From Torpedo marmorata (lineage: Eukaryota): a DNA stretch of 64,000 bases. Under the pieces are notes generated by a model. It saw only the letters and a program-made list of their open reading frames with translations, was not told the DNA's origin and ran no database searches. The DNA lies in contig OZ360250.1 of assembly GCA_977017645.1 (NCBI GenBank), positions 36,270,001 through 36,334,000 of the forward strand, read 5' to 3'. Positions within the stretch are counted from its first letter, which is position 1, and the number at the start of each line of letters is the position of its first letter. Positions 3,047 through 63,639 of the stretch are shown here, piece after piece. Position numbers and translations under genes: made by a program.

Positions 3047-3049
3047 AAG

Positions 3050-24389: not shown

Positions 24390-25580
24390 TCAGATAGCGT
24401 TGGAGAATTTAAACCCATGCATTTGTATGTTCGGGGAACTCCTCGATCCTCTACAGGGGTGACAGACCTCCCACAGGCCTGTGCACCAAATAAAGGGAAT
24501 TGGATAATGAAAAATCTGAGTCATCCATTCCTCAGGAGAGTAAACTGCTGATTGGGACCTCACCCCTGAACCTGGATCGAGGATCGACACCAATCCTCCA
24601 CTGTAGTGTGGAGAATCTCGTCTGTCACGTGACCCTACCGGCGAGTACCTAGTCAAAGGTCGCATCACCTGCCAATCAAGGTTGGACTCCACCTACCCAT
24701 TAGTGCACACCTGACCATTGGCCCCTTTAATCACCTAGCGATTATCTAGGCCGGACCCTCCAGCTTGCTGTACTATAAGAAGTAAACACGAAAATCTGTA
24801 GACACCGTAATAATGTAAAAAACACAAAAGCTGGAGAACTCAGCAGGTCAAACAGTGTCTTTTATGTAGCAAAGGTAGAAATACATAACCGACATTTCGG
24901 GCTTGAGCCCTTCATCAAAGTATGAGAAAATGTCGGCAGGCGTCCGAACGCCTGCCGGCATTTTCTCATACTTTGATGAAGGGCTCAAGCCCGAAACGTC
25001 GGTTATGTATTTCTACCTTTGCTACATAAAAGACACTGTTTGACCTGCTGAGTTCTCCAGCTTTTGTGTTTTTTGCTGTACTATAAGGTTCACCACGTGG
25101 AGAAGCTCTTCCTCTTTTGCTCTTCGGCCCGGAGACGAATCCTGCTCTACTCCAGGTCACGAATTGTGGACAACGCTGGAGGAGTCGCTGGTAAGATGTG
25201 CACTACATAAAGATCGGGGGTGTTGTATATTGTTGTAGCATCTGAGCCATGCCCACGTTAGACAAGGAACGGCAGGTGGCGTATTGTAGTCCTTGGTTGT
25301 GATATAAGTCTGTATAAGCAGTTGCTAATATCGGTATTTATTGTATCTGATGTGACTGGGTTGTACTGTGTTTGTATGAGTGTAAGCAGTTGCTAGTATC
25401 GATGGTGTTGACTCTGATGTGACTGATTATACTGTGTTGTGTGATTAAAAGCACAAGTGTGTGTTATCCCTGTTGCGATCCCCTTACATGTGTTTTAATA
25501 AAGATCCTTCCTGTGTTCAGCCTGTGTCCAGACACGTTGCTCTTTGAACCCACTGAACTTGTTTCCCTTCCCACACAACA
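24390..25580 (+). mobile_element. Probable solo LTR (5' boundary uncertain)
   Basis: TATA-like tactataag, downstream AATAAA (about 25497-25502), TG-rich U5-like region, ends ...caaca. No TSD established. Confidence 0.45.
24780..25074. mobile_element. Fold-back pair of Penelope-like 3' termini
   Basis: Arms 24817-24943 and 24948-25074 (2 mismatches seen), 4-nt loop. Flanked by ttgctgtactataag at 24765-24779 and 25073-25087. Confidence 0.9.
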
Positions 25581-25999
25581 CCCACAAATTCCACCAGCAG
25601 CAGCTCGGAGCTTTGTGACTGCCCTGGCATCTGCACTTGGGGATTCAACCACAGGCATTACTGGTGCAGGCACACTTCCTCCACAGCTTCATTCACCGTG
25701 CATCTCCACACCCTTTCCCCATGGCTCATTGCACTTGACTCGGAGGAACCTAGAAGGTCCTCAGGATTCCAGTGGTGGTACAATGGTTAAATCCAGCAGA
25801 CTACTCTACCAATCCAGAGATTCCGGTTCAAATCCCATCGCAACAAATGTGGCATTTTAACAAAACACAAGACTAGGAGGAAGTGGATTGTCGCAGAACC
25901 TTATCTGGTTCATTGATGTCCTCCAGAGGAGGAAACTGTCTTACCTGGCATCGCCTTAATGTGACTTCAGACCCACCAACGTGGTCGATGCATAATTAT

Positions 26000-26520
26000 G
26001 TACAGTTTTGGGCGCCTTATATGAGTAAAGACGTGTGGCGTTGGAGAGGGTTCAGAGAAGATTTACCAGAATGATACTAGGAATGAAAGGGTTAGCATAT
26101 GAGGAACAATTGTCAGCTCTTGGACTGTACTCGGAGTACAGAAGGATGAGGGGGGACCTCATAGAGGTATTTCAAATGCTGAAAAGCCTGGACAAAGTAG
26201 ATGTGGCAAGGACTCGGGAGGTCAAGGACAAGAGAGCATAACTTCAGGATAAAAGGGGGTCAATTTAAAACAGAGATGTAGAAAAAAAATTTTGTCAGAG
26301 GGTCGTGAGTCTGTGGAACCTGTTGCCACAGGCAGCTGTGGAAGCAAGGTCGTTGGGTGTATTTAGGGCAGAGATTGACAGGTATTTGATCAGTCAGGCC
26401 AACAAGGGTTACGGGGAGAAAGCCGGGGAGTGGGGCTGAGTGGGAGGATGATTAGAATGGCAGGGCAGACTCGATGGGCCTATGGGCCTACTTCTGCTCC
26501 TATATCTTGTGATCTTGTGA
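26000..26520 (+). mobile_element. CR1 LINE 3' fragment
   Basis: ALERVQRRFTRMI.GMKGLAYEE motif plus CR1 3' UTR. Confidence 0.85.
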
Positions 26521-26885
26521 AATTGCCCTGCAAAGCCTGGCTCAAGGCAGCAAGAACCCCACCAATAGCTTCTCAGGATATTTAAGGATGGGCTTTGCCA
26601 GTGCTGCCCACATCTCAAAAAAATGAATAAAAAGGAAGAAAAAAATCTCCAATCTGTGATCTGTTCACTGACCTTATTGTTGGGTATAGCAAACCTTGGA
26701 TTTGGAAGGCACAGCGTAGTCTGTCCATTCTTGTTTAGTAACTAATCAACCTCTCTCAGGGAGGGAGAGTTAGAAGCTGAGTCAGCACAAATGTGATTAT
26801 TCCCCAGTAGCTGTCAAACTTGGTTTATGCAGAAAGACCACTTGCAACGGAACCAAAAGAGGCAGCCTATAGCTGTGAAACCATG

Positions 26886-27500
26886 TCACAATCTTGAGGA
26901 GTAAAACACAAAAGTCTGCAGACACCGTGATTGAAGTAAAAACACAATGCTGGGGAAACTCAGCAGGTCAAACAGTGTCCTTTATATAGCAAAGATAAAG
27001 ATACATAACCAACGTTTCGGGTGTGAAACCTTCAAGCCCGAAACGTTGGTTATGTATCTTTATCTTTGCTATATAAAGTACACTGTTTGACCTGCTGAGT
27101 TTCTCCAGCGTCGTGTTTTTACTTTTATCACAATCTTGAGGAGTAAAACACAAAAGTCTGCAGACACTGTGATTGAAGTAAAAATACAATGCTGGGGAAA
27201 CTCAGCAGGTCAAACAGTGTCCTTTATATAGCAAAGGTAAAGATACATAACCAATGTTTCAGGCTTGAGCCCTTCATCAAGGAATGAGCAAAATGTAGGC
27301 AGGTGCCTGAAGGAAACTCAGCAGGTCAAACAGTGTACTTTATATAGCAAAGATAAAGATACATAACCAACGTTTCGGGTGTGAACCCTTCAAGCCTGAA
27401 ACGTTGGTTATGTATCTTTATCTTTGCTATATAAAGTACACTGTTTGACCTGCTGAGTTTCTCCAGCGTCGTGTTTTTACTTTTATCACAATCTTGAGGA
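26886..27500. mobile_element. Two tandem fold-back Penelope-terminus cassettes
   Basis: tcacaatcttgagga occurs at 26886, 27128 and 27486; each interval contains an inverted pair of about 70-88-bp arms. Confidence 0.88.
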
Positions 27501-28921
27501 AGGGGCAAAGGAACCCTTTTGCTTCCTACTGGAGAGACCATATATTTGACCTTTTTAGCTTTCACTGAGGTGCAGTCCGATGAGGCTGCAGAATTGAAAG
27601 ATCAATATTCCAGACCAAATTTTGATTCTGAGCAATTCTAATCACACTGGTCTAATTGACAAATGGCTTGCAAAAACAAACGCTAACTACAAAAAAAGAT
27701 CATCACCACACTCCAACGAGAAGGATAAGGCTAGAAGAATAGAACAGGGGAGTCAGCTGGGTTAGGGGGAGAACACATGGGAAAAGAAATCAAACAGGAG
27801 CTAACGATCCAAGGGAAAACTAATTGTGGCAAACCAATGACTTACTTGAGAGGAGATATCCGTTATAGCCATATCTTGCTGAGGACAATGCAAAGAAATG
27901 ACAGGTTAAGAGACGTGGAAGTGGGAATCATGTTTCATGAAAGGTCAACAAGGAGCATAAAGAGAAAAAAAAAATCAAATACAAGGAAGTTGAAACTGAT
28001 AAAGATGTTATGATAATAACATCTACCCTGTGTTTGTTCACACACAGTCACAGGTTGTGTTGATCTCCTATTCTTAAACCAAATGTCATTTCCAAAGATG
28101 CCTCAAGATGAGGCATGTTGTTTATACCACCATGTGCCAACTGATTACGGAGCCATTACAAACATCCTGTACCTGGATCAGTGACGTGAGGATGGCACAC
28201 TCATTGTTTAGTGTGTGTCTCCTTGTCTGACCTGAGCCACTAAAGTTGCCCAAAACTTCCAGTCAGCGGTACAGTAATTACATTCGCCCCTGACCTTGGA
28301 CAGGGATATAGGAATCTCCAGAGCAAGAACTTTCCCTTTAATGGCACCTGTTTTATTCAGACACCAGATTCAAGGGATCCCCAATGTCCAGCTGGCTGAG
28401 CAGCCAATCACATTAAAGAATTCTCACTGATAGCAAACCTGGAAACAAAACGTTCAATTTTGAATTAATCTTCTGTCATTATCCAGAATGCTAAATAAAC
28501 ATCACAACATGCACATGAATAAAGTTCTGAAATTCCACAAAACTATTCTTAAGGAAGCACACTTTAAAATTCATTATATATTGAAATATTCATGAGAAGA
28601 AACTATCAATCTCATAGATAAAATTAGCTTTTAGGACCACTTATTTGATAAGCACTAATTATGGCAGAAATTCAATAAGCTTTGGACTTTTAGGATATTT
28701 TACGGTTTGACATATAAATAGTTGAAATTCGCATCAGTTTCCAGCGATATTCCTTGATTTTGCCTCCAGAAAACCCACCCTGCAAAATTGTGCTGATTTG
28801 TTTTGAGCAGCTTCATCATTTGCACACCAAGAAACACAGATATAATATTCACCAAGTTGTTGTCATTTTACTGAGTGGAAATCACAAATCCTAGTAAGGT
28901 ACGTTGGCATAACTACCATTA

Positions 28922-29141
28922 ATTTAATTTAGACATACAGCATGGTTAACAGGGCCCTTCCGGCCCATGAGCCCATGCCGCCCAAATACCCCAAGTGCGG
29001 TGGGAGGTGACCAGAGCGCCCGGAGGAAACCACACAGACACGGGGAGAACGTACAAACTCCTTATGGACAACGCCGGATTCGAAACTGGGTCGCTGGCGC
29101 TGTAATAGCGTTGCGCTAACTACTACGCTAACCGTGCCGCC
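28922..29141 (-). mobile_element. V-SINE (HE1-like)
   Basis: Same family as the other V-SINE copies. Confidence 0.85.
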
Positions 29142-31140
29142 ATTGCCTAACCGTTACCTCTGACCTGACCAGCAGAGCAAACGGTCAAATAAAATATCGG
29201 CACATCCGTACATTGTACTCATGTATATGACAAAACACTGTTGTGTCATTGCACCTGCCAACGCAGTCTATCTCCTACAGAGCGTCAGAGCAGAGAAGCA
29301 GGCCCTTTGGCCTTCCATGCCCACAACGACCATCAAATTGATAGCTAGTCATACTGCCGAGAAGCAGGCCTTTCAGCCCATCGTGTCTATGCTGACATTG
29401 TACCCATCTGTAACTGCATTTACCAGTGGAGCCGTCAGCGCCTTGGAAATTCACGCACTTGTCCACTTACTACCTAAATCCCATGAGTGTACACACCCTA
29501 TCAGCTTCTCAGGCAGTGCTTCCCACATTGTAACCCCACTCTGCGTGATTTTTAGTTTCCTCAGATCCTCTCTCACCCTCTTCCTCGTCACTTTAACCTA
29601 TACCCTCTGGTTTTGGATGTCTCTGTGACTGTGAAATGTTTCGCACTATTGACGCGACCAACGTCTATTCATCCCCGTCCCACTGACCAGCAGTTCTGTC
29701 ACCGACAGTCCTGGCCCTGAGGCAGAGCTGGAGAAGATCCCTGGGCAGTAGAATGAGAATGAGGGGAGGGTGCAAAATGGACAATGGGTAAACACCAGCT
29801 CCAATCGGGAAGAATTCTGACAGAAAGCCTTCACTCTTGATGCCATCGCAGTGGAGACAGTTGTGGAATGAGAAAGCAAAGTGACAGAAGACAACATAGT
29901 TACTTGACAACTAGCTGCCTCCGCCTCATGCCTGGTACCCTGTACTAGAGATAACGTTAACAGAAGAATTGCCTCACTAAGATTAGTGAGCGCAGCATTT
30001 ACAAGCACGATTGCTGCTTGTGTCGAGATAGTCGGGTCAGTTCCTAATGCAGGCTGACTTGAAGGAAGGGAAATGGAGCTGAATCTTGCTCTGAGCCTGA
30101 TCCGGATGAGACCTGTGCATCTCCGCAAAAGGTCCTGCTTTATTCACAAAAGGTCACTCCTTGGGCTGAAGGCAGCACCGTGACAGAAATCTTCCCAGGA
30201 AACATTTCTTACCCTGGCATCTGTCGCCAGGAATAGCGCGGAGCAGAAGGACTCTGAAAAACAACTGTCTTGCACGAAAAAATGTTGCAAGAGGAATCGG
30301 CTGCCTGGTGGTAAGAAACTGTCAGGGTGAGTTTTGTGACAACCAGCCACACTCAGGAAATGAAAACGCAAACATAATTTCCATGTCACCATATATAAAC
30401 CCTCCACTGAATTCACAGCAGAAGATGGAGACAGCATCATTTCCAGCCTGTCCACATCACAACGAACCACTCACTGCTTCGGTTCCAGTGACGTTGGTAA
30501 GAAACACTGTGGTAAGAAACCATGCTAATAACTGCCTCTAGCAATAGAAATTCCCGACCTCTCTTCCTGTTAGCCTACACAGGATCCTTTGAAATACTAT
30601 TTTGACAGTAATATCCTGCTTCAAAATGTTTGCACATTGTTAAGAGTAGGTTTGGTGGATACAGGCAGGAGTGTTTATATATTCTATGGCTTTAAAGTGC
30701 TGAAGATTTATGCACATCATGTGGGACAAGCAGTTCAGAGTGCCTTGGCTCCAGTGGATGGGTACGTACACACACACATTCAAAGTTCCCCTCTTCCCCC
30801 ATTGGACTTAGTCAGCTTGATTGGCCAGATGGCTTACTCCTTCTCCTATTTCTTATGTTCTTATGTCATGTTGAGCTCTGAAAGAGTCCAGTGCAGGGAA
30901 CTCCTCTGGACACTTCAGTTGGAGGAGAAATCCCAGACCACTCTTTGCCAGCTGACAATACATGTGATTGTCTTTGACATTCAGAAGCACTTAAAAACGT
31001 ACATGTGAAAAAAAAAATCAAAGCACATTAAATAATTGTAAACAATATTGTAAATACAGGCCATTTTATAAGATGTAACCTTCCCTGGAGCTCCACAATC
31101 CCCATTCACATGAATGGACTGATGGATCCTGTGCCCCTTT

Positions 31141-34105
31141 TGTGATGTTTCTTTTTATTGTAATAAAGAAACTTGGGTTCTTTTACAACAACTATACTTT
31201 ATTAGCGATAGACTCAAGACAGTGTGGAGGCATCCATCTTGAATCCAACCGAAGCTGCCACAAAGTAGTCTCTGACTCCCTCTAGTGGTCAGGAGTGTCA
31301 CTAGCACTCTCCCCTTTCCTTGAGATGTTTAATCTAACAACATGACACACTAATACAGTATTCATTTCAATTTAAAGTTCAACACAAACGTAAACACAAC
31401 ATCAGCAGCACAAACTTTTTAAGTGTGTAGTTCTTTTTCTTTTAGAGATTCAGTCTGTCAGGTGCTTTGATAACGCGTGTGGATCTTCTTAACATAGGTG
31501 CTTGTGTCGGCTCTGCTGGTGCATTACTGTCTAGCACTGGTGGTGTTTCCTCCGTTGCTGTGCAGGCTGGATCTTCTGCATTTGTCTGTTCCTGCAGTTT
31601 CTCTTGCATTTTCAGCAGGCTCTTTCGATTCCTCCTCAGTATTAACCATCCTCTATTCTGACAGTGTAGGATCTTGGATTTACTTCCTCCAGAACAGTAG
31701 CCTTTTTGTCCCAAGTGTTGGAATCTCTGAGTCTCACTGTGTTATGTTGTGCCAGTGGCCCTAAGCTTCTTGCTGACTTGTCATAGTTTGCTTTTTGTCT
31801 CCATTGCAGACGCTTTTGTTTCCGTTCGACATCTTTGTTCTTGATTGGGTCTGCAGAGTAGGGAAGTGTGGTGCGTAGTCTATGTCCCATTAGAAGCTCA
31901 GCGGGTGACATGCCATATTCAAGTGGCGAAGCTCTGTAACTCAATAGAGCTAGATACAGATCTGAGCCACTGTCTAGTGCTTTCTTGAGCAACTGTTTAA
32001 CTATGTGAACTCCTTTCTCTGCTTTACCGTTTGACTGTGGATGCAGAGGACTTGAAGTCACATGTTGAAAATCATACTCTTCTGCAAAGTTCTGGAATTC
32101 TCTACAACTGTAGCATGGTCCGTTGTCACTGTAGACAATTTGAGGAATTCCATGTCTTGCAAGGATCGATTTCATATATTTTATCACACAAGCAGCAGAC
32201 ATATTAGGAAGCAGCGCAATCTCTGGATAGTTCGATAGATAATCAATAACCAGCAAGTAATTATTTCCATCCATATGGAACAGATCAGTCCCAACTTTCT
32301 GCCATGGTTCTGCTGGTAAGTCAATTATTATCATGGGTTCCTTTGTCTGCTTTGCGTGATGTTTCAAACAGGTCTCACAGTTTGAAACCATTCTGTCAAT
32401 GTCAGCATTTATCCCTGTCCAATAAACAGCAGTTCTGGCCCTCCTCTTACATTTTTCCATTCCAAGGTGCCCCTCATGCACCCTTTTCAGCATCTCTTGT
32501 CGCAGTGATTGAGGAATGATAATTCTGCTCTGTCTGAGTAGAATCCCATTGACAACACTCAGCTCAGCTCTGATGTTGTAGTATGGCTGACATTCACCTC
32601 AAGGCCATCCTTCATTCAGATTCTTGATAACCTTCTGTAGAACTGTGTCCTTTTCTGTTTCAGCTGCGATCTGCTTGGATTTCATGTCAGATACGGGAAG
32701 AGATTCAGTGATCCAATTCACGTGGATATTCACATCTGTCTCTGTGCAACTCTCATTGTGTGCTTCACTCTGCGTCATTGCCCTGGATAACGCTTTAGCT
32801 AACACAATAGGTTTCCCTGGTGTGTACACCCTCTCGACTAGGCTTAAGTTTTCACATGCTTTGTCACCAAGCAGTGATTCACGTCCATCTGGGACTACTG
32901 TGAACCTGAGGTGGTGCTCTTTATCTTTAACTTTCACCTTGAGTATACATGTACCTTTCGTGTCGATGCTCTGTCCATTGTAGGCTTTGTGCTGTACAGG
33001 ATTTGTATGGATGTATGGCTTTACCTTCATTGCCCTGATGTCGCGCTCACAGATCAAATTGACCTTTGCCCCTGTGTCCAGCTTGAAAGGAATATTTGTT
33101 CCATTTGTATGTAATGACACAGTCCACTTGTCCTGCTCGACTCTGTTCACGCTTGGCTGTTCAGTGTCTGTTGGTTTATAATCTTTATGCACTACCATGC
33201 CAACGTAAAGTGTATCACTGAGAGCAGTTTCTTCTATAGTGTTTTACATTGTGCACGCTTTCACTTCTGTTTTGTTTCCCTTTGAAAAAACATTGCTTTG
33301 CATAATAATTCTGCCCTTTGCACTTATTACAGACTTTTCCATAGGCTGGGCATTGTTTTTGGTGCATGTTGAGTGCCACATCGTTTACAAATGAATGTCT
33401 CTCCTTCTTTTTGTTGTTTCCTATGTCTCATTTTTTGTTTATGTGTGTGGACACACACTGTGGCTATGGCTATGCCTTCGTTTTCACTGGCTTTTGCACT
33501 CTCACCGAACTTTTTCGCGTGCTGCAGAGCTAATTCACTGGCGTGGCATATCTTCACAGCTCCAGCTAAGGTAAGCTCTGTCTCTTGCAGCAACCTCTCT
33601 CTCACTTTCTTATCAATAATCCCGAAAACAATTTGATCACGGATCATTGAATCTTGCAGCAATCCAAAATTGCATGTTCTTGCTTTTATTTTCAAGTCCG
33701 TTAAAAAAGTATCAAAGCTCTCTCCCTGCAGCTGCATGCACGAGCGAAACACGTAGCTCTCGAACATTTCATTTTTCTTTGGTGAACAGTGTTCATCAAA
33801 CATCTCGATAACCTTGTCGAACTTGCCCTGGTCTTCTGCCTCGGCAAAAACAAATGTATTGAAAACCTCTAGTGGTTGTTGAGGTCCTGCCACGGTAAGT
33901 AGCAGTGCAATCTTCCGTGCATCAGGTATGCTATCGAGTCCAATGGCTTGCAGGTGCAGCATGAATCTATGTTTGAACAGCCTCCACTCGTGGTCGACGT
34001 TTCCAGTCCAATTTACAGCATCAGGAGCCTTCACAGTTTCCATTTCTCTGCTGCTATCGACTGATACACACTCTGCACACTCCTAGTGTTTACCCCACTC
34101 CTGGT
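31141..34105 (-). mobile_element. Ty3/Gypsy LTR retrotransposon, decayed: gag, protease, integrase, PPT and 3' LTR; RT/RNase H absent
   Basis: gag 33327-34043 (IRDQIVFG, CKRCG knuckle), protease FKLDTGA, integrase 31642-32493 (HEGH..C..C, DLF, SDNG, GKAE). PPT aaggaaaggggagag precedes TG at 31306. PBS-like accaggagtgggg near 34093-34105. Confidence 0.9.
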
Positions 34106-34348
34106 GTAACCAAGATGATGGTGTAACCAAGATGATTGTGTAACCAAGATGATGGTGTAATGAAGATGACGGTGTAATGAAAATGATTGCGTAATCAAGA
34201 TGATCAAGATTATGGTGTCACCAAGATGATGGTGTAACCAAGATGATGGTGTAACCAAGATGATGGTGCAACCAAGATGATGGTGCATCCAAGATGATGG
34301 TGTAACCAAGAAGATGGTGCAAACTAGATGATGGTGTAACCAAGATGA
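34102..34348. repeat. 17-bp minisatellite, about 14 copies
   Basis: Unit tggtgtaaccaagatga with variants. Confidence 0.92.
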
Positions 34349-34917
34349 TCTGTTGATTGCCATGGGCACAGAGGAGAAAATCTATTTTTGGAGAAAGTGC
34401 GCCCGAGATTACATGAGCGGTGTTAAGCAGAAGGGAAGCACATGTTTCTTTTATGAAATGGAGGTTGATGCCAAAAGCCCATAACAAACAGTGAAAGGAA
34501 ATATAGAGGCCATGACCTACATGCTGAAGCCTAACGTTTTAGAAGGACTCAGGTTCTTCCTTGCAGCATGACATGTTTTCTATGGCGCACAACCTATTGC
34601 ATCATTTCTTGTAAAAGGATGTGAAAGGGAAGTGGAACAAGCAGCAACAATAAGTGCATGAAGAAATGGCAAATGAAGGTCTCCTTGTTCACCAGAACAT
34701 TGTGTGCAAGCTGGAGTTGGCGAGTGATGGGTCCAGTCATGGTGCAGATACGGTGGTGTGGCAAATTGTGGACAGTGCGCAAGAGAAGCACATGACTTTT
34801 ACTTCTAGCACTGTTGCAAAGATCAACTCTGCACATGAGGGTGGAAACGAACGTTGAGAGAGATAGAGATATTTCAACAATTTTTTTACAGGCAGAGCAT
34901 AACCCACAAGGAATAAC

Positions 34918-35720: not shown

Positions 35721-36167
35721 CAGATGAGGCCAATGTGGGACTGCAGACTCTTCAACATGCGGGGCAAGAGGGGCTTGGCAGAGCTTGGGAGATGGTGCTG
35801 CCCTTCTACCATTTAGGGTAGGTTCCGTGTTCTCCAAATGCTCCGTGTTCTTGGTGTCATCCTGAATGCTTCTTCCCTAGTTTGAGTGGTCACGGGCCAA
35901 TAATTCCCTGGAATGGTTGAACTTTTTTGAAGGAATCCTTTAATCTTTTCATCTCTCCACCTGGCAATCACTTCCTATGGAGAATTTGGTATGAAGTGTT
36001 TCTTTCAGGAGTTTGGTGTCAGGCAGGCAAACAAGGCCTGCCCATTCGGGCCCTGTTTAATTAGGACCTCAATGCTGGGGATATTGGCTTGAAAGGACAA
36101 TGTCAGTTCACTTCCTTACAATGGATTTTGATGATTCTGCAAAGAGAGTATTGGTGGTTCCACTCGG

Positions 36168-39952: not shown

Positions 39953-39959
39953 ACTCATC

Positions 39960-43603: not shown

Positions 43604-44449
43604 GATGGTAAAAGCAACTGTTGCACTACCGTGTCTCATGCACCGTGCCATGAGGCACGGTGTATGGCTCTCTTGGTTCCTGTTACTGTAAGTCAGACAG
43701 AATAGTGAAAATAGTTACAGTATCTCTATCTGGGTTCATAAGTAGCAGGAACAAAGCATCAGTTTTGCATTTGGAATAAAACAAACGCAGAACAGTAATG
43801 TATTATTGGAAGAACATAAAGCAGTCTCCATTCCGAGGCACCCATTTTCCACCAATTTGGTTTTAATTAACTTTACTTTAACTCAGATATAAACTCCCTC
43901 TCCTTAATCCCCTATGATTATCCATCCCCTTTGGTAAAGTGTAAATGGCATAAGGTATTGTTACTGCAACTCAGAAGTTGATGACATCAACCGCTGATCC
44001 ACTCTCTGGTTTTGCATTTTCTTAAGAAGCTGTGTTTTAATTTTGGTAAAATTTCAACCAGGCTTCTCTGGTTAACAAGCAGTGAGCTAGAAATTCTACA
44101 ACATCATGTTAATATGTTTTATGTGATACAGAATTGTTCTTAAGATCTGGAATCCCATTGCTAAATGCGAATGGCATTTGTGTGCACATCCAGCTCTTTG
44201 TGTGTCCTGTAGTCCAGCCAGTCTCAACCTTTTCTTTGGCTATGGCCCCCTTAGGACTCTGCTTAAAGTTTATGGGCCCCCTTCCCTGTGAAGTTTTGGT
44301 TTCTTCCGTACTTCTCTCCTACCGACGACATAAAATCATAAAAAATATTTATGTTACGTGAGGTGAAAAGCAAACGAGGCTTTTACTTAAAGGTGCTGTG
44401 GCCCCCAGGGGGTTTGTAGGGTCCTTAATGAGAATAGCTGGTTTAGATA

Positions 44450-44880
44450 ATGAGAGGGATTGTGGTGTTAAGTTCGTTGGGAGAAAGAGTGGGGGGGATT
44501 GTGGTGCTAGGTTCGTTGGGAGCGAGAGTGGGTGGATTGTGGTGCTCAGTTCATTGGGAGCGAGAGTGGGGGGGATTGTGGTGCTACGTTCGTTGGGAAC
44601 GAGAGTGGGGGGATTGTGGTGCTACGTTCGTTGGGAGCGAGACTGGGGGGATTGTGGTGCTACGTTCGTTGGGAACGAGAGTGGGGGGATTGTGGTGCTA
44701 CGTTCGTTGGGAGCGAGAGTGGGTGGATTGTGGTGCTACGTTCATTGGGAACGAGAGTGGGGGGATTGTGGTGCTCAGTTCATTGGGAGCGAGAGTGGGA
44801 GGGGGATTGTGGGGCTGTTCATTGGGAACAAGAGTGGGAGGGGGATTGTGGGGCTAGCTTCGTTGGGAGTGAGAGTCGGG
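44450..44880. repeat. About 38-bp G-rich minisatellite, about 11 copies
   Basis: Unit ggattgtggtgctacgttcgttggga(a/g)cgagagtgggg. Confidence 0.92.
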
Positions 44881-45809
44881 TGAACATTCACTAAAAAATT
44901 TATATCCACGAGAATCTATCTGGAAGGTGGGCTCAGAATGAAGTGAAGGTGTCAGCTTCTTAACTAATGCTGATGAAACATCAGAGCTCTACAATGCTTA
45001 GAGCAACTTTACACATGATGATAAAACAGTTTGCCTGCCTACTCTATGTCCACATATTTAGATACCGTGGTTCAAAATGAGCTGGAAGTTAAATGAGGCT
45101 CCGATAATGAGCACACAACTAAAGCTGTCTCCAGGGTGATGGAACTCCTACACCAATCTTCCCTGCCCTGTGGAGTGCAGTGAATGTTTGTGAAAAGCCA
45201 CGGCAAATTGCATGGCGAGGACAAAACAAACATCCGGACAATTTTCCTCAAGCTCAAATCCTCAACCAACTTATAGGGTTAGAGTTTGCAATGTCGGCAG
45301 CAAGATGAGTTATGGACCAGGTAAAGAACCTCCCACACAAGGTAGCAGTCCTGCCCAACAGGGTGGGGGAGCATACCCTGATGTACTTAATCGCTTATGA
45401 AAAGAATTGCACGCGATGGTTGAATAATTTGGCTTCGACTTCCATTTGTTGAATTTTGGGTGGGGTTTTCCTCACTATCCTTTTGCCCACACCAACTGCC
45501 TCTCTGCACCCTCTCTGTTTGCTTGAACATCAACCCCCAGCTGCCTCTCGGGACTGTCAACAATCCTGTTGGCATAACAGCCCATTCTAGGGATCAGGAC
45601 TGCAGTGTAAACACAGGAAAGTCCTCTTGAAAGATGTCTTACACTATTTGCTTTAAATAGAAGTGTGGGGTCCCTCTCGTCACCGACACCACGTATTGTA
45701 AACCAAAATACAGCTTTGATTTGGGGAGGTGCTTGTCTGCTGAGTTTTCAATGCAAAATAAAACTCTCGGGTTATTAAAATGGTTGATTAAATTGAGGAT
45801 CTCTTCTCG

Positions 45810-51462: not shown

Positions 51463-52304
51463 CACCGGACAACAATTTTTTTTTCCCCAAAAGATTTGCT
51501 TCCTGAAAAGAAATTGGGGATTATGATAGACAACTTCAAGCTGAACACAAAGATAATTTCAGATTTGCTGTATCACATAGGAAGTTGGAGAGACATTAAA
51601 TTTGATTGAATTTAGCATGTTTAATGGCATAATGTACCCTGAGCCAAGCTCTCAGGTTGACTGCACATGTTGCACAACAAATGTGAGGAGCCCAGGGTTT
51701 GTCTTGGTCACCAATTTTACAACTGAAGTTGAGCTCATAGTCTTTCTTAATAAGCGCAGTAATGCTGCGTCTTTGAGCCTTAAGCGTAAAGTCGCCACAA
51801 ATGTAACAGAATGTATCGCAGCTGTTGCGACATTGGCGAGACATTTCTGCTGTATTGAATCTTCCTGAAGACTATAAATGATATTGGTAAGTACACTCAC
51901 TATGCTATTGCCTGAAGAACATGTGCATCAACATGAGTTCAATCTATATTAATGTAATGCACAGCATCTGTATATGTGAGCTGCTTTTATAGCCTGTCTG
52001 CATCTGTCCTGACTAAAAGTAAACACGAAAATCTGTAGACACCGTGGTTAGAGTAAAAAACACAAAAGCTGACTAAACATGCCCGGGCCTAAGACAACAG
52101 GCATGCTTGGACTGACCAAAACAGCTTGCTTTGTGGGCAATATGCTAGTAGACTTTAGAATATGACAGGAAATCATAAAAATAGATTATATAAAAAAAAT
52201 GATGTGTGATAGGAAAAGTTTAAGGTGATTTTCATGATCAGCAGCCCAAAATCCATAAAATACACCCAAAAGTGTTCAGGAAGCAAAATCTTCGTTGTCC
52301 AGTT
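51463..52304 (-). mobile_element. Internally deleted DNA transposon with Cys-rich N-terminal remnant (superfamily uncertain)
   Basis: ORF 51596..51844 FCYICG...IGDQDKPWAPHICC..C; imperfect TIRs (c/t)ggacaac...gattt(t)gcttcctgaa at both ends. Confidence 0.7.
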
Positions 52305-54193: not shown

Positions 54194-54202
54194 AATATAT
54201 CA
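54194..54202 (-). CDS. KCNMA1: KCNMA1 9-nt alternative microexon (IYF insert, often called e20)
   Basis: ctggtag|TGATATATT|gtgagt between the CKACH exon and STREX. Phase 1-1. Gives L-I-Y-F when joined to 11164, or L-I-Y-S when joined to STREX, matching known Slo1 inserts. Confidence 0.9.
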
Positions 54203-56229
54203 CTACCAGTGTGCAGTTAAATTATAGAGTTTCATGTTCCAGGGCAGCAAGAAAAAAATAAATTAAAAATACATCAATCATCAAAAGGTACTTGCAGTCA
54301 TTTCATACATGGATTCTCATCTGCCTGAGTTCCATGAAAAGAGGCTTAAATGCATCTGTGGTTTCTCTGTTTCCCTACAACATTTTCTACAACCGTGAGA
54401 TAACGTAGAAGGGGTGAATGCTTGACATTTATGTTCATCCTTCAAAACAGATACATACCAAACTCGAGCACATTTTCTCCAACAAATCATCCTGTACAAC
54501 TCTTTCCACCAACCACTCCCCCGCCCGCAGAAAAAAAAAACAACCCTGCGAGGGCCATTCCACTTCCATCTCCTACCCTGAACAGATTTTCTTTGCAAAT
54601 TCTGGACATTCTTTGAATAATTCAGACTACAATGAAAAAGTAATGATAGTTTTAAGATGAATTTTTGTTATGCTTTCAAGCATTTGGGGTTTCTTTTATT
54701 TAAACAAAATATAAAGCTACTCACTTTAATTATTCTTGACCTCTATGGATACAGCAATTTTTTTTTTGTTTAAATTATTAATAATGGGCCTAAAAGGTTT
54801 GGACAAATGGCTAAGTAGGTCAGGTATATGTTAACAATGTGACATGACTAATGCCAATGTAATGATAAATCTGCTGGAATTCCTGTTTAAATGTGACAAC
54901 AGCTACTAAGATGTGTGTCCTTTTAAAAAAAAATCCTTTCAATTCTGGTCCTGTTTCTCAAGTGTTTCATATTGCATGTTCAACCAATGTCGACTGTGAA
55001 GTACAATGGATTTGGCAAGGATTTGTCTTTGTTTTCCAGCTGACTTGGAGAATTACCTCTTGAGTTTTCAAACAGCGGCAGTTTAGCTCTGACAAGCTCT
55101 TTCTTCAGCCTCACTAATCATGTCATTTTATTTATACATCTGTTCTACATCACATCATTAATAGATTGAAATTTGGACTCCTCATTTTAGGCACACCGTT
55201 ATTCTCCACGTATATTTTTAATTTTTTGCATGAGGCTTAATCACATTAATGCTAATTATTTTTCGCTCCCCAATCTGTAACATTCATTAATTTTTCCAGA
55301 TTTGTCATTATATATTAATGGCATAATGTTAATCTAAGCCTGCCTTCCTTTCAGGTAATTAAACTTCCTTTCATGGAGCCTGAATAATGTTGCTTTCCAT
55401 TTAATTTCCCCTACATAACTTATTTGAGTAGGTTAAGAGAGTTTGTGAGGGAGTTTGTGGCATTGTTACATCATGGCATTGTTACATTGGCATGAGAGTA
55501 TTCCTCGAGGCTGGGCAAATGGGACAACGGGGCAAAGAGAGCCACTCTCTTCTTTGATTGGCCAGTTTTAGGAGAGCAGAGGAATAGCCTATTGGTCAAT
55601 CAGAATTGGCAACAGAGAACATGTAAGCATGAAGAAAGATCTTAAGGTGGAAAGCTATGTCCTTCAAATAATAAAATGGTCAGTGCAAACCAAGTTCAGT
55701 CAATGTCACAGATAGAAGTATTACATCTTGCTAAAAATTATAATTCTACTGCTTATCCCAGCCTTAAAACCACCTTGCTTTTAAAAGAGTTCAATAATTA
55801 TTAGAATTGAGTTTCCATGCACATTGACCTCCATCCAATTCGTTTATGAAAGGTTTATGCTCTGTATCAAGCTTTATGGCTATCGAACCAAACTCTGCCA
55901 AATGGGGGCTATAATTAATAGGCGAGTTGCAATAAAAAAGAGCACCTGTACACTTGAAAGCTGTTAAAAATGAGTGTGTTGCTGTTGGGTAGCCGACATT
56001 TATAGTGTGTTGTTTATATTCAATGTCTACGGGGTGAGTAAATGGTGGTTTAACTACACAACTGTACTCCATCTCTGGTCTTCAGTGACAAGCTAATAAC
56101 ACAAAGCATTTGATGACCGATATGCCCTTCACCACTATCTGCACACCAAAGGCAAAACCTTCAAACCGTACATTGGTCTCAAATTATAACCAGTTAATTA
56201 CAAGCCGGTGACCGAAGATGAAATCATTA

Positions 56230-56391
<162 letters not shown>

Positions 56392-57864
56392 TCAAAAGGC
56401 AGAGTATATCTTAAACAGTCTTAACTGAACACATGTAAATTCAGCTAATATTTAAGTTTCAAGTTCCAGAGCAAGGTAAAGTATACTTGTTTGGGGGAAG
56501 TGGCTTGTTCCAAATGAGTTAAAGGAGTATTCAAGAACGCATTAAAAGAGGGATGGCCTTTCACCTCATTAATACTGCTCCTTTCCCAAAGCCTGCTCAC
56601 TTGGTACTATCATGGACTCCACTCGACACACTTAATCTCTTGAGGGAAAGATGTGTGAAATTTCTCCCTGACCCCCCCAAGGTAATTGACTGAAACTCCA
56701 GAATATCAATCTATCCTAACAAGGTCTATTATTCAATCCCCACCAGCTGCCTTCTGCCAACGACGTTTCCATGGCGCCAGTGTCACAGGAACCATTGTGT
56801 TTCCTAAAGTCATTGATCATCTCTGTCGGTACATATCATTATAATCTTCAGCTATGTAGCTGCTCCCTTTGAAGGGGTTCATCAGCGCAGCCTGAACTGC
56901 TTTTGCTCAGACTTTGTTCCAATATCCACCCTGCTCTGCGGGGGAAAGAACATTCTATTCTCCAGTCCTGCCTGAGGCATGTTAATTCTCATTTCCTGTA
57001 ACTCGGTGCTCAATGTCCAAGTTAAATAACTGACTCACATCTACATTATCCATGGTTATCAACGTTTGAGAGATCTGGATACCCTTCTGAACTTATTCCA
57101 CCGATGATGTTTGGTTCTGAGAAGATCCTATGATAACAAGTGTTGGTCTGTTCGCATGTAACCTTTTTGGGTCTACTTTTTGTCTTCTTAGTGTTCAGGA
57201 TACGTAACAAAGTGGTAGCAGAATCATTTAACCCGGTGTCTGAAGTTATCAGTCAGTGCAGAGTTAATCTCATTTATTTTAAAGCATTAGCGTAATAAAG
57301 CATTCCAAAATGCTTTGCAAGCAAAGTTTGGCACCGAGCTACTCAAAAGAGTTATTTTGCCATGTGGTGAAAATTTCAATCCAAGGGGGAGGTTTTAAAG
57401 AGCCTTGTTTAAGAGGAGTGGGAGGCGGGGGGTTTAGAGTGAAATTCCAGAATTCAGATCCCAGGGAGCCAAAGTCATCCAGTGTCACCACCATCGAAAT
57501 AAAGGCTGATCAAGTGCCTGAATCAGAGGGCAGAGATCTTGGAAGGTAAGACGACACTCCACAGATGGAGAGTAGTGAGGTCATCGTGGGATTTGAAAGC
57601 AGAGATAATAAGTAAGGTCAAAGATTTTAAATTAGTCCACTTAACAACCTAATTAAAACTTAATCTTCCAGTGGGACTCTCTTGCCCTCACCCCTTGCAT
57701 TGGTGGGAGAGGGAAGTAAATGGAGTGTCCAAAACTGGTCACACATGAGCACTAAGAACAGGACTAGTTCAGATAGATGTCTGAAACTCACCCTACCATT
57801 CAATAAGATTGTGGCAGATAATCTACCCTGCCCACTTTCCAATATTTAAATGTTAAATTTTTAC

Positions 57865-58076
57865 TTTTTAAATTTAGACGTACAGCATGGTAACAGGCCC
57901 TTCCAGCCCACGAGCCCGTGCCGCCCAAATACACCAGTCAACCTAAAACCCCCATACGCTTTGAAGGGTGGGAGGAAATCAGAGCACCCGGAGGAAACCC
58001 GCGCAGACACGGGGAGAACGTACAAACTCCTTACAGTCAGCGCCGGATTTGAACCCGGGTCGCTGGCGCTGTAATA
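57865..58076 (-). mobile_element. V-SINE (HE1-like)
   Basis: V-domain and box B on the minus strand. Confidence 0.85.
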
Positions 58077-59409
58077 GGGTTCCCTCTTGATTCCAACATC
58101 CTTCCGTTCCTTTAGAGAGCAAGAATCTACCAGTCTCGGTGTTGAATATCTCCATTGACTGAGAGCTCAATGAAAACAGAATGCCAAAGATTCACAGCCC
58201 TCTCCTTCTGTGGCCTCTTAAAGGCTGGCCTTTGTACCATGTTAGCAGTTATGGAACTAGCTCAGAAGGACGAGGAGGCTCCCAGTCTCCTTATGGAAGG
58301 GTCAAGAAACATCAAATGAAGGTGATTGATAATGGCACCAAAGTTCATGATGCTGAACTTCACCCTCACAGTGGTCCTGGAAATCACTGCGGGGAGTAGG
58401 GGAGATGCCTTCAACTGTGGATAAGTATTTGATAAGTAAAAAGGGCTGCACTCCAGGGAGAGGGCATGGAGTGGGGACGGCCAAAAAGGTGGCAAGAACT
58501 CAATGGGCCGAATAGCCTTTTCCCCAATGTTCCAACTTTCCTGTGATTCCCAGCAGTCAGAGGTGGAAATTTCAGAGGCGTCAGAGTGGAGAGACCTGAC
58601 AACAACCAGACTCCACTGGATGGCACATGCCATTTCCATGAACGTATGTACCCACCTCTCTCTCCCCCTCGAGATGCCTCTCAACAACTACTCCATGACC
58701 CAGCTCTTGGCCACAGTTATAATTGTCTGCAGCTGGATGCCAAACTTTGTTAGTTGACTCATTGTGAGGTGCCCTGGAATATTTCATTAACGCACACGGT
58801 TACTATATGTGAATGAGTGTTAGCACAGAGAAGCAATAAGACTTATTTCCTCATTCTATGTCAGTACTGGGCCCTGTACAGAAATAACCTTTTATTAGGC
58901 TTACTGACATAACCCCAATCTCAAACCTTCTCCATGAACCACAATGGACTATTTCTATTGTTCTATTTCTAAACGGCTATTTCCTACGAGTATGGGCTCT
59001 TTTGGTGAAACTACCAATTGGAAGTCTGCTCAGTAAAAGCCTGAAGACTCGAGTGTTTTGGATGGCCCACACAACCTGAACCCCACACATCATATCAGGT
59101 CCCATCGAGGTGTGATCAATGACCAGACTCTTCCGCCCATTCTGTGACCACGTGCCATCTTGGTATTCCAGAGTGAGGTGTGACCAAGCTGGCTTGTTGA
59201 ACAAGGAGAGATTAAGCAGCCTGGGCCCGCCGTGTTAGGAAATATTCGCAGAAGCTGGAATCTGAAACAAGCACAGAAATGCTGGAACCTTTGAACATTT
59301 CGGGTGAGCAGAACTGAGCTGCATTTGAGTTCTGGTGATGGGTTTTCAACCCGAAATGTTGAACTCGCTTCTCTTTCCACAGATGCTGCTTGATAGGCTG
59401 AGTTCTTCC

Positions 59410-60030
59410 TGCCTTCATTGCTAGAGGGATTGAATTTAGGAGCAGGGAGGTTATGCTGCAACTCTACAAGGTACTGGTGAGTCCGCATCTGGAGTACTGC
59501 GTGCATTCTGGTCTCCTTACTTAACAAAAGATGTACTGGCTTTGGAGGCGGTGCAGAGGAGGTTCACCAGGTTGATTCCAGAGATGAGGGGGTTAGCCTA
59601 TGCGGAGAGATTGAGTCGTCTGTGGCTGTACTCACTGGAATTTCGAAGAATGAGAGGCAATCTTATAGAAACGTATAAAATTATGAAAGGCATAGATTAG
59701 AGGTAGGTAAGTTGTTTCCATTGGTGGGGGAGACTAGAACTAGGGGACATAGCCTCAAGATTCAGGGTAGTAGATTTAGGACGGAGATGAGGAGGAACTG
59801 CTTTTCCCAAACGGTGGTGAATCTGTGGAATTCGCTGCCCATTGAAGCAGTGGAGGCTACCTCAGTAAATATATTTAAGACAAGGTTGGATAGATTTTTA
59901 TAAAGTAGGGGAATTAAGGGATATGGGAAAAAGATAAGTAGGTGGAGATGAGCCTATCATGATATCATTGAATGGCAGAGCAGGCTCGATGGGCCGGATG
60001 GCCTACTCCTGCTCCTATTTCTCATGTTCT
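59410..60030 (+). mobile_element. CR1 LINE 3' fragment
   Basis: Highly similar to 7290-8180. Confidence 0.9.
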
Positions 60031-60272
60031 GCATTTGTTTCTGGGCCCATATTGTTTACTGGATAAAAGAGTGAGAGGTGATCTGATTTCGGCATAGAAA
60101 TTTGTAAGGGGCTTGAAAGAGATGGGGAGTTGTTGTTTTTTCTGGCTGAGATGGTTAGTGTCAGGGATCTGATTCTCAAATCTGGAGTCGGATTTTGGAG
60201 AGAGAGGAAGAGAGATGCCTTCAATAAAATCTCATCTTACTCTTCCAAACAGCCAACTCATACTAGAGTTAG

Positions 60273-61672
60273 TAAAAACACAATGCTGGAGAAACTCAGC
60301 TGGTCAAACAGTGTACTTTATGTAGCAAAGATAAAGATACACAACCAGCATTTCGGGCATGAGCCCTTCATCAAGGTATGAAGAAATGTAGGCAGGCGCC
60401 CAAACAAAATGGTGAGGGAGGAGGGGCAGGGGGAGGAGCACAGTCCCAATAGGTGGATAAGGGAGGGAGGGCACACCTGCAAACAGGGGGATGGCTCTGT
60501 GAATGGTGAGGGAATGGGGTGGAGAGCTGGAGGAAAGAAGACAAAGGGAAAGGGAAGGGAGGGAGAACAGAGAGCAGGTTAGCAGAAACCGGAGAAGTCG
60601 ATGTTAATGCCATCCAGTTGGAGAGTGCCCAGACGGAAAATCAAGTGTTGTTCGTCCAATTTACGGATGGTTTTGGTGGGACAGTACATGAGGCTATGGA
60701 CAGACATGTCTGCATGGGAGTGGGGCACCGAATTGAAGTGGTTGGCCACTGGGAGATCCCTGTCACTGATGCGGACAGAGTGAAAGCGCTCAGCAAAGTG
60801 ATCTCCCAGTCTGCGCCCAGTCTCTCCGATGTAGAGAAGGCCAAAAAGGGAGCACCAGATACAGTAGATAACTCCTGCGGATACACAAGTGAAGTTTTGC
60901 TTTACTTGAAGGACTGTTTTGGGCCCCGAATGGTGCCCACACCTCCTCCCTCACCACCATTTGGGGCCCAAAACAGTCCTTGCAAGTGAAGCAACACTTC
61001 ACTTGTGTATCCGCTGGAGTTATGTACTGTATCCAGTGCTCCCGATGTGGCCTTCTGTCCGTCGGAGAGACTGGCCACAGACTGGGAGATCGCTTCCCTG
61101 AGCACCTTCGCTCTACCGCATCAATGACAGTAATCTCCCAGTGGCACTACAATTCCCCGCCCCACTCCCATGCTGACATATCTGTCTATGGCCTCATGTA
61201 CTGTTCCACCCAGACCACCCGTAAATTGGAGGAGCAACACCTAATTTTCCACCTGGCCACTCTCCAACCGGATGGCATTAACATCGACTTCTCTGGTTTC
61301 TGCTAGCTTACTCCCAATTCTCCCTCTATTCCCCGTCCCTCTGCCTTCTTTTCTCCAGCTCTCCACCCCCTTCCCTCTCCAATCACAGTTATCCCTCCTC
61401 CCACTGTTTGCTGCTGTGCCCTCCCTTCCTTATCCACCTATTACCTCTGCCTTTGGGACAGTGCTCCTCCCCCTGCCCCTCCCCACCCCCCACCCACCAT
61501 TTTGTTCGGGCGCCTGCCGACATTTTTCTCATTCCTTGATGAAGGGCTCAAGCCCGAGATGTTGGTTATGTATCTTTATCTTTGCTATTGTTTCACCAGC
61601 TGAGTTTCTCTAGCATTGTCTTTTTACTTCAACCACAGTGTCTGCAGACATTCGTGTTTTATTATATTTTTT
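60273..61672. mobile_element. 1.4-kb head-to-head Penelope-like fold-back (two GIY-YIG plus 3' UTR arms)
   Basis: Plus arm: VKQHFTCVSAGVMYCIQCSRCGLLSVGETGHRLGDRF.EH...LEEQHLIF. Mirrored minus arm, centre about 60930-60960. tcatactagagttag at 60258-60272 and 61673-61687. Confidence 0.9.
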
Positions 61673-63639
61673 TCATACTAGAGTTAGATATGCCCAACAA
61701 TAAAGAGCTGAACAATGCTGATGTTTCCTTATCAAGAGGATAATGGATGGGATTCCTGTGTAAATCCTTAAATATGGGAGAGAAATGCAAGTACCACTGA
61801 TATTTAAATGCTGGAATAAGGTTGTGGTAACCACAAGATATACTGTACATGATGCAAATCTTAGCACTCTGCAAATATAAAAGAAATAAGGATATCTGCA
61901 GTGTATTGCTGATAATTACAGAGGAAAAGCTTTCACAAAGGTCACCAGAGTAGCAGGTAATTCAGAATTGGAAGATCAACGAAAGATAGGACACTTTGTC
62001 CCCAGCAACTTCAAGAGAAGCACAGCGATCAAAAATGACCACAGTGGGTTAGTGTAGCCTCAGTAGTGCTGGCCTATCTGCAGTCCAGGAGAAGATAGGA
62101 TTCCTACCGATCCTGTTTAGCCACATGTTGTCTCCACCACAACAAGGCAGTCACTGTTCAACTTGTTGAGTCTATTTCAGACAGTTTGGAGCTGCATTGT
62201 TGCTCCCACAGTTTTTGGAATCTTCCCAGAAATGTGAGTCCCAAGGCTGCAAAAGGGGAGTGTGCCTACATTGAAGGAAAGGTGGGAATCTCATTCCCCT
62301 GACATGAGTCGAGGTGAAGATGGATATCAGTAAGGTGCTTGTAAGGGAACTTCGATTCACTGATGATGCCACCCTTATACCGCTCAAGAGATCGACTCCC
62401 AGAACTCACGGTACACCTTTCACACACTTGGCAGGCATTTTCTCTCAATATGGACAAAAAGAAAACCAATGTAACTCAACCAGTGACTTTCTCCAGATTT
62501 ATGAATCACCTCCAATGAAAACCAGCTCGAAGTTTACAAGTTCAGCTGCATTGGTTCCTCGGTGAACACAACTCTTCACTGGATGAAGAACTCAATGTTC
62601 ATGTCAGAAAAGCTGTGACCACCTACAGCAGAATAACCGATCCTCCAGCTCACCGTCATTGGTGAACAAGTGTCAAGTTACTGAGCACTTTCACGTACGC
62701 TGGAGACAGTGTTTTCACTCCAGGAGCCGAGGTGCACTGCTCACACAGCAGAATCAACATCAAGTGGCGAGATGGAGTCATCATCGCACTTCTTCGAAGG
62801 GCTGGTTGACTAAATATGACAGCCACACTCAATATGGGATGAGTGCATGACTTAGACCTCCTGAGCAGGCTGTATGGTGGTCACGCATACTCTTGAGCAT
62901 GCTGTGGCTGGGATCTATATAGGGAACAAAGGACTCCTGAGTTTCATGATAAAGTTGTGTGCAAGAGAAGAATGGAGGAGATTTTAATTGATCCAATCAG
63001 GGGGAAACAGTCTAGTGGGACATCAAAGTCCACGACAGGATGGAGTTCAACAGCTTGAAGAGAAAATTATCTGAATGATGTTTCTGAAATGAACACTTAT
63101 CTCTCACTCTCATGCACACATGCTCGCACATACACACACACACACACACTCTGACATGCACACGTACTCACACACGCAACTGTGTCTCTTTAACTGCACA
63201 ATTCAGCCTCTTCTGCAGAAGAAAGCATACCAGCAAAAATAATGTCATTCCAGGGCCAGATTCTCAGCTGCTGAAAGAAAACAAGAACTTGCAGCAGAAA
63301 CCGGCGACCCGGCCTCTTGAAGCTGCCCCACCCGCCATTCAACAAGCTTCATTCAACCTTGGCCTCAGCTCCCATTTCCTCCCTGTTCCCATATCCCTTG
63401 ATGCCCTTGGTCCAACAGTCTTGGCCGCAGATATATTCATTGACTCACTTGTACAGTTCTCCACGGTGGAGAATTAAAAAAATTCACAACTCTCTGAGAG
63501 AAGCAACTTCTCCTCATCTCCTTAAATGCGCAACCCCTTGGTCTGAAACGATCCAAAGAGAAACATTCCTTCAACATCTACCCGCTCAAACCCATCCGCA
63601 ATCATTCAACAAGATCCTCACATTCAGTTGTATGTCAAT

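Follow-up and report, generated by a model that had tools for sequence, protein, structure and literature searches.

Three sites in the window (the whole analysed stretch of 64,000 nucleotides from Torpedo marmorata) are head-to-head 3' ends of a Penelope-like element (PLE) with a GIY-YIG endonuclease, and we are nearly certain that each is an insertion, truncated at its 5' end, of a Penelope-like retrotransposon that bears an endonuclease. For their origin we favor, with a probability of roughly 55%, staggered nicking of the target, priming at an outer RNA site, self-primed fold-back of the cDNA and attachment of the second target end at an inner site.

Common layout of the three insertions

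Inverted arms of about 95 to 740 nt are present at all three sites with tails pointing outward, as originally predicted; the orientation follows from the reading frame of the GIY-YIG fragment at site 3. The predicted 15-bp flanking direct repeats are exact and non-extendable at the boundaries of every site; among 1500 random position pairs the longest repeat was 8 bp (2/1500), and none had 9 bp or more. Because one to five bases at the repeat edges also match the element's own sequence, the actual stagger of the cut is known only to within a few bases. A constant 15-bp cut for this family, as the original prediction had it, is unproven: it has three cases, a solo tail in the window has a candidate 9-bp repeat, and PLE target duplications (TSDs) are described as variable in published papers, with 8–10 bp in a rotifer (PMC3846280).

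An extra tail is found on one arm only, of 39 nt (site 1), 30 nt (site 2) and 46 nt (site 3); the predicted asymmetry is thus real, although its size is not the 35–45 nt given. The two defined 3' end points that had been proposed are seen as preferred ends of the arms and again in public contigs, whose loose ends peak at two places about 36 nt apart; there the outer end peaks at 26899–26901 in 4/4 runs and the inner end at 26936 in run X2. The 5' break points of paired arms are offset by 4 nt (site 1), 3–5 nt (site 2) and 19 nt (site 3); offsets of 30 nt or less at three sites have a chance of 0.0002–0.002 if independent log-uniform truncation is assumed. An unpaired spacer lies on the tailed side at 3/3 sites (1 in 8 by chance). 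Substitutions between arms number 2/125 at site 1, 6/90 and 7/90 at site 2, and 82/644 at site 3.

Structure of the individual sites

At site 1, repeat comparison places the target duplications at 24765–24779 and 25073–25087. Between them are a tailed minus-strand arm (24780–24949), consisting of the pLTR 3' end plus the 39-nt tail and including a 4-nt spacer (24944–24947), and a tail-less plus-strand arm (24948–25072) that overlaps it by 2 nt; loose contig ends fall at 24949 and 24948, respectively. The insert, predicted at 24780–25074, starts as given and stops at 25072. It sits inside a multi-copy host repeat (24560–25220), further copies of which might represent the empty site, though no other copy was found in the window. 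One contig piece from run X7 stops at 24778, at most a hint of an empty site.

Site 2 had been described as a single palindrome; it is indeed a fold-back with a 15-bp repeat, but comprises two units (227 and 343 bp) and three repeat copies, at 26886–26900 (this junction lies within contigs of X1, X2 and X7), 27128–27142 and 27486–27500, the latter two from repeat comparison. Unit 1 has a tailed arm (26901–27034, minus strand), which combines sequence of arm L and of the middle arm of unit 2, and a tail-less arm (27031–27127, plus strand), with a central overlap of 3–4 nt within the hammerhead-like stem II described below. Arm alignment resolves unit 2 into tailed arm L (27143–27311, minus strand), an extra direct pLTR piece of 81 bp forming a partial tandem (27312–27392, minus strand) and a tail-less arm (27389–27485, plus strand), whose flank junction lies within contigs of X1, X2, X6 and X7. 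The units differ at 4/223 positions, and unit 1 is probably a deletion derivative of unit 2.

The public contigs compared came from 4 runs of 7, of which X1 may be kin to the window's own source and so not independent support. Site 2 is occupied in 4/4 of these runs, and its flanks diverge by 6–10% between organisms. Since its outer junctions occur in contigs of 3/4 and 4/4 runs, from up to four differently labelled organisms, the insertion is old and no assembly error. That the palindromes are an assembly or long-read chimera artefact is most improbable. Palindromes are a familiar read artefact, and among the listed public contigs, compared over a stretch that takes in sites 1 and 2, none crosses a palindrome centre or the middle one of the three repeat copies at site 2, features read only from the window sequence; against this stand the arms themselves, which are asymmetric, differ by 2–13% with indels and lie between target duplications, the differences between the site 2 units, and the site 2 junctions just described.

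Site 3 is bounded by target duplications at 60258–60272 and 61673–61687 (repeat comparison). Its tail-less arm (60273–60935, minus strand) contains an open GIY-YIG fragment, and its tailed arm (60936–61672, plus strand) a frameshifted GIY-YIG fragment, the pLTR and the 46-nt extra end, in which some 11 nt seem foreign to the element. The 19-nt spacer (60936–60954) is in frame with the tailed (right) arm; junction microhomology is an uncertain 0–3 nt, the parent sequence there being deduced only via a protein homologue. Differences between the arms are spread over codon positions as 12/17/18, with 15/47 synonymous versus 27% expected (p = 0.27), and look neutral, as though the arms had been identical at birth, in a test of low power that two templates differing by a few percent, or gene conversion at a later time, would pass as well. 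Two templates at this site, an idea prompted by the raw 82% arm identity, were unsupported by this codon test.

Identity of the element

The site 3 fragment is a 118-aa C-terminal GIY-YIG endonuclease frame (60582–60935, minus strand) whose stop precedes the pLTR, and together with its homologues P0001 and P0004 it bears out the prediction of Penelope-like 3' ends. A profile search against PF01541 gave E=0.025, a match that falls short of the curated cut-off. Identity is 66% to P0001 and 43% to P0004, an RT-bearing homologue with PF00078 upstream. The cysteines between GIY and YIG that are canonical for endonuclease-bearing PLEs are present, with the CxxC intact in the right arm of site 3 and one Cys missing from the left. 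Also present are the 5' truncation, partial tandem (in site 2 unit 2) and adjoining inverted copy of canonical elements, and a one-ended tail whose 39, 30 and 46 nt compare with a published 30–40 bp, often at one end only (PMC8557442). Every copy in the window is cut off 3' of the RT, and the site 3 fragment starts just past the RT-EN linker; in P0001, the best homologue, a test for CX2-5CxxC gave C-x4-C-x2-C. This linker is a Neptune feature, also found in Nematis (PMC8557442), and the element is probably of Neptune type.

Two other kinds of inverted structure were considered and rejected. L1 twin priming yields a 5' inversion with junction microhomology and a TSD near 15 bp, all of which recall the present sites, but there the inverted part is a different, upstream RNA piece, whereas here the two arms are copies of one and the same 3' end and no non-overlapping upstream piece is found. 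In MITEs and foldback DNA transposons the terminal inverted repeats are symmetric and enclose an interior that is constant within the family; here the ends are unequal by 30–46 nt and the centres fall at three different places of the retroelement 3' end.

The terminus also occurs at two other loci in the window, neither of them palindromic. One is a solo tail of the same family lacking an inverted partner (52018–52068, minus strand), flanked by 9-bp direct repeats (52009–52017 and 52069–52077), part of which may derive from the element. The other is an older, more divergent single-arm PLE 3' end (21175–21650, minus strand) with a GIY-YIG end and pLTR and neither tail nor inverted arm, around which no direct repeat was seen by eye. 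The family is highly abundant: contig depth summed across the terminus is 10^5 to 10^6 versus about 10 in unique flank (X1, X2, X7), a ratio that is not a copy number. Pattern scans for more copies gave 5 matches in viral_contigs, all chance 20-mers, and 0 in another scan, 0 and 0 in metagenome_contigs and 0 in genome_contigs; no empty site was found among the 15 listed of 3593 contig joints.

A candidate minimal-hammerhead-like motif in the pLTR (24966–25008, plus strand) was read by eye against the description in PMC4209133, and occurs whole or cut in other arms too. Its core position 3 is U, not C, with G8 and a visible 4-bp stem II, whereas the published variant is U3-A8 (PMC4209133). An Rfam search for a hammerhead gave no match, and folding z-scores of −1.6 to +0.4 were not significant. 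Apparent covariation in the tail hairpin was accounted for by CpG decay. Insertion into host introns, as first supposed, was not borne out: the 48 of 67 frames of at least 110 aa that were scanned matched only transposon-type families and no host gene, in a scan that short exons would escape.

A proposed fold-back mechanism and its alternatives

We propose that the GIY-YIG nuclease would nick both strands about 15 nt apart, a stagger suggested by the repeats, and that cDNA synthesis would start from the first 3'-OH, at the outer one of two U/G-rich RNA sites that resemble each other and lie 36–39 nt apart. After 130–740 nt, the junctions suggest, the cDNA end may fold back on 2–4 complementary bases a few nt upstream and prime itself; the second target end would be joined at or near the inner site via microhomology of 2–5 bases, and fill-in would leave a palindrome, a tail on one arm and a duplication on both flanks. 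At site 2 one extra template jump would have come first, giving the partial tandem, and the insertion would later have been duplicated between the 15-bp repeats, one unit losing an internal direct repeat. The spacer lies on the tailed side at every site, in agreement with fold-back of the first cDNA, which requires that side. Fold-back would not be obligatory, because many copies in the public contigs end at the hammerhead-like motif beside unique flank (27282 peak).

The original prediction had two independent cDNAs joined. One template with self-primed fold-back is favored instead because the arm break points nearly coincide, the spacer is on the tailed side and the site 3 arms diverged neutrally. 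In a version of the original model narrowed to one template, which we hold to be unlikely, a protein dimer would let one target end prime at the outer site and the other at the inner site of a single RNA, and the cDNAs would stop at the same break or block and anneal at their 3' ends by short inverted microhomology. Such dual priming accounts for the obligatory one-sided tail, the identical arms and the coinciding break points, and PAc cleaves and extends both strands, with two adjacent starts and a predicted dimer (PMC11167929). It makes no demand on which side the spacer lies, a weak point against it, and the second cDNA must displace the first over up to 700 nt. Against fold-back, the in vitro work had both strands extended from RNA with the start site equal between strands, which fits dual priming (PMC11167929); PMC3846280 places self-priming on an antisense template, not first-strand cDNA; and the events number only three.

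Two separate RNAs primed independently at the two target ends are improbable. Arms differ by 13% at site 3 and 7–8% at site 2 although the 15-bp repeats are perfect, but at 11% non-CpG divergence a 15-mer stays intact with a chance of about 18%, and it is the perfect repeats that get noticed. The near-coincident breaks and neutral arm differences also speak against separate templates, and the age of site 2 agrees with the 6–10% flank divergence. It is quite improbable that host repair, acting on a single-arm copy through fold-back replication or conversion, made the mirror arm after insertion: single-arm copies occur and later rearrangement is evident at site 2, but both arms lie inside the target duplication at 3/3 sites and the second arm always stops at the element's inner end point.

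Returning to self-primed fold-back, we regard it as possible, though less likely than not, that the footprint in this Neptune-type fish family obeys strict rules, with a narrow, dimer-set stagger of 13–15 nt, a single template in each event, a near-zero break offset and a spacer confined to the tailed arm. In that case the many thousands of copies in the genome would amount to a record by which cDNA fold-back could be told from dual priming, and palindromes flanked by TSDs could be lost precisely or gained in tandem, site 2 being an example.

Comparison with known PLEs

The fold-back layout, with an inverted copy, a one-sided 30–40 bp tail, a TSD and a palindromic junction, is already known. 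The asymmetry taken to be under-described is standard for PLEs (PMC3846280, PMC8557442), and priming from both DNA ends at two RNA positions, though in line with the two starts and both-strand extension reported in vitro in 2024, is not novel (PMC11167929). What is added here is that arms break within 3–19 nt of each other, that the spacer is on the tailed side at 3/3 sites and that site 3 differences are neutral. The description by itself has little weight; its value lies in data on the PLE inverted copy and second-strand completion (PMC8557442, PMC11167929), and the three junction rules can be counted cheaply in any good shark or ray assembly. PMC12602865 held nothing on structure.

The PLE layout of Craig et al. 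2021 (PMC8557442) and Penelope of D. virilis, which has a 34-bp repeat and inverted termini (PMC2377424), share the 5' truncation, partial tandem, adjacent inverted 5'-truncated copy and tail. The tail is attributed to endonuclease resolution and the PLE cycle called undefined (PMC8557442). Neptune is said to prefer microsatellites (PMC8557442); none of the three targets here is one.

Poseidon_Ac of the anole, studied in vitro (Frangieh et al. 2024, PMC11167929), is alike in its two adjacent internal starts defining the tail and its pLTR hammerhead, for which there is a candidate motif here; both strands are nicked and extended in vitro, and a dimer is predicted. It differs in belonging to the Poseidon clade and in having AC-rich starts inside the ORF start, without target homology, whereas the present elements have U/G-rich end points, no ORF start after the hammerhead-like motif and target matches of 1–5 nt. 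That study did not resolve inversion or TSD length.

Fish Neptune elements carry minimal hammerhead motifs, and those of metazoan PLEs form opposite-strand pairs 100–700 bp apart, like the palindromes here (Cervera and de la Pena 2014, PMC4209133). In Adineta vaga, Pen2a_Av and the scaffold-304 Pen2 copy have inverted pLTRs head-to-head with a junction palindrome, a 31-bp tail on a single inverted pLTR and a TSD enclosing the whole unit; self-priming was proposed from such palindromes, and an empty site was shown (PMC3846280). The A. vaga TSDs measure 8–10 bp versus 15 bp here, where the copies are the last 95–740 nt of the element.

Structure of the three palindromic insertions

Palindromic inserts between exact, non-extendable 15-bp direct repeats, as predicted for Penelope-like element (PLE) 3' ends, were present at 3/3 sites: site 1 (repeats 24765-24779/25073-25087), site 2 (26886-26900/27128-27142/27486-27500) and site 3 (60258-60272/61673-61687). 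The longest comparable repeat among 1500 random position pairs in the window was 8 bp. Each site holds two copies of one element inside the target duplication (TSD), with their ends facing outward. One arm is longer at each site, extending 50, 48 and 58 nt past a fixed motif at sites 1, 2 and 3 (the tailed arm), compared with 11, 18 and 12 nt in the short arm; the resulting asymmetry of 39, 30 and 46 nt is broader than the ~35-45 nt first proposed.

Site 2 is not the single palindrome that had been described, but consists of two tandem palindromic units (26901-27127 and 27143-27485) among three TSD copies, the second unit containing an additional direct 81-bp piece. The units differ at 4/223 positions (~2%) and the direct pieces inside unit 2 at 7/77, which suggests that the partial tandem in unit 2 would be as old as the insertion itself and the doubling between the 15-bp repeats later. 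Unit 1 would then be a deletion product of unit 2. On this reading, the region 26886-27500 gained a tandem unit between its target duplications after the insertion, and sequence was lost from the first unit.

Element identity

Both site 3 arms carry coding sequence for the C-terminus of a GIY-YIG endonuclease. The left-arm open frame (118 aa) gave a weak Pfam GIY-YIG match (E=0.025, below the cut-off) and 5 matches among 72 candidates in a protein homologue search. It is 66% identical to the best homologue, a protein assigned to ray by its source, and 43% identical to an RT-bearing 894-aa protein. Because the best homologue carries a CX4CxxC linker, a type that marks Neptune and Nematis (PMC8557442), the element is likely a member of Neptune. 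These homologies suggest that the host is probably a cartilaginous fish. A putative minimal-hammerhead-like motif was recognised by eye in the non-coding end, in the same sense as the element; neither an Rfam search nor folding confirmed it.

Junctions in public contigs

Seven public sequencing runs matched part of 24300-28200, and contigs of four of these (X1, X2, X6 and X7, labelled as four organisms) were aligned to the window. At site 2, contigs of X1, X2 and X7 contain the left junction and reach 15-25 bases into the element, and contigs of 4/4 runs contain the right junction and reach 32-50 bases in; these pieces have up to 10% differing letters relative to the window. The occurrence of these outer junctions means that the site 2 insertion is older than the split of the four labelled organisms, an age that fits its 7-8% arm divergence. 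None of the contig pieces listed for the four runs crossed the centre of a palindrome, and the 15 joints listed, of 3593, included no empty-site joint. Site 1 is located in a multi-copy host repeat (24560-25220) with high contig depth on both flanks, and other copies of this repeat would act as empty sites for it.

Loose ends, the places where other genomic copies stop, were taken from 24 of 8263 rows. Among these rows, a peak at 26899-26901 occurred in all four runs and a second at 26936 in X2, giving two element end points that are separated by ~36 nt and are both preceded by similar U/G-rich motifs. A further peak among them, at 27282 in X7, X2 and X6, corresponds to many copies that start exactly at the hammerhead-like core and adjoin AT-rich unique flank directly, which shows that single-arm copies of this element are common. 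The start point at 27282 may mark a 5' position where the element preferentially ends, or the copies may be a short, non-autonomous variant.

Insertion mechanism

The arm break points nearly coincide, with spacers (unpaired nucleotides at the palindrome centre) of 4, 3-5 and 19 nt at sites 1, 2 and 3 against arms of ~95-740 nt; under an assumed distribution of independent log-uniform truncation, the chance of this is 0.0002-0.002. The spacer is on the tailed side at 3/3 sites, assigned from loose ends at 24948 and 24949 among the rows listed (site 1), by alignment (site 2) and from its extension of the right-arm frame into the homologue (site 3). Centre overlaps are 2 nt at site 1 and 3-4 nt at site 2, the site 3 value being uncertain. 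Differences between the site 3 arms are evenly distributed over codon positions and show no synonymous excess (15/47 vs 27% neutral expectation, p=0.27).

Given the coincident break points, the tailed-side spacers and the neutral site 3 differences, we favour a single template and a fold-back of the first cDNA onto its own strand. Nicking would be followed by first priming; we infer every later step, in which the folded cDNA would produce the mirror arm. Dual priming on one RNA, the main rival, predicts coincident break points and neutral site 3 arms equally well, and is separated from fold-back by spacer side alone (3/3 tailed, 1 in 8 by chance). Two independent cDNAs being joined, as in the original prediction, is less favoured on these features taken together. 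The two-site priming in that prediction agrees with the paired end points seen here and is already in print.

The predicted 15-bp TSD was found at 3/3 palindromic sites in the window, with 1-5 bases at the TSD edges also fitting element sequence. A solo tail without an inverted arm (52018-52068, 51 bp) lies between partly element-like 9-bp direct repeats (span 52009-52077), and PLE TSDs have been described as variable (PMC9977147). No direct repeat was seen by eye around the element copy at 21175-21650. A constant cut stagger is thus unproven.

Genomic context

The proposed seeding of host introns is without support, since the 48 of 67 long frames scanned gave only transposon-type matches and no host gene family; short exons would escape such a scan. 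The insertion targets are not microsatellites (AT 45-62% vs 56% for the window). At 15067-16266, two same-family LINE 3' ends lie tail-to-tail ~100 bp apart in a ~1.1-kb inverted structure (79% overall), a geometry opposite to that of the PLE sites and probably the product of two insertions. A 452-aa open frame at 19125-20480 (-) with Brinker, Tc5 HTH and DDE_1 domains represents a pogo/Tigger-type transposase. The LTR-type element at 31645-33243 (-) has aspartyl protease then integrase domains with no RT match in the frames scanned, and is possibly internally deleted. A degenerate 5S rRNA match (653-771 (-), 45 bits) may be a pseudogene or a 5S-derived SINE head. Minisatellites occur at 2800-3074 (55-bp units), 23372-23531 (22-bp), 34068-34384 (17-bp) and 44446-44883 (38-bp).

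Comparison with known Penelope-like elements

The original observation is correct, but the sites are the standard PLE footprint rather than an under-described insertion type. The typical layout has an inverted copy and a tail of 30-40 bp that is often confined to one end (PMC8557442, which terms the PLE cycle undefined; also PMC8969392, PMC2377424). Two adjacent start sites are reported to define the tail, with both strands cleaved and extended and a dimer predicted (PMC11167929), and hammerhead pairs on opposite strands are described 100-700 bp apart (PMC4209133). Among the papers listed, in a search that covered subscription literature thinly, none tabulated how long the TSD is, how far the junction is offset or on which side the spacer lies for a fish Neptune family. 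The junction rules seen here add modestly to the known layout and can be tested. Rotifer PLE copies, with head-to-head inverted pLTRs, a 31-bp tail on one pLTR, TSDs, junction palindromes and proposed self-priming, share the inverted layout and one-sided tail of the window sites, but have TSDs of 8-10 bp where those here are 15 bp (PMC3846280).
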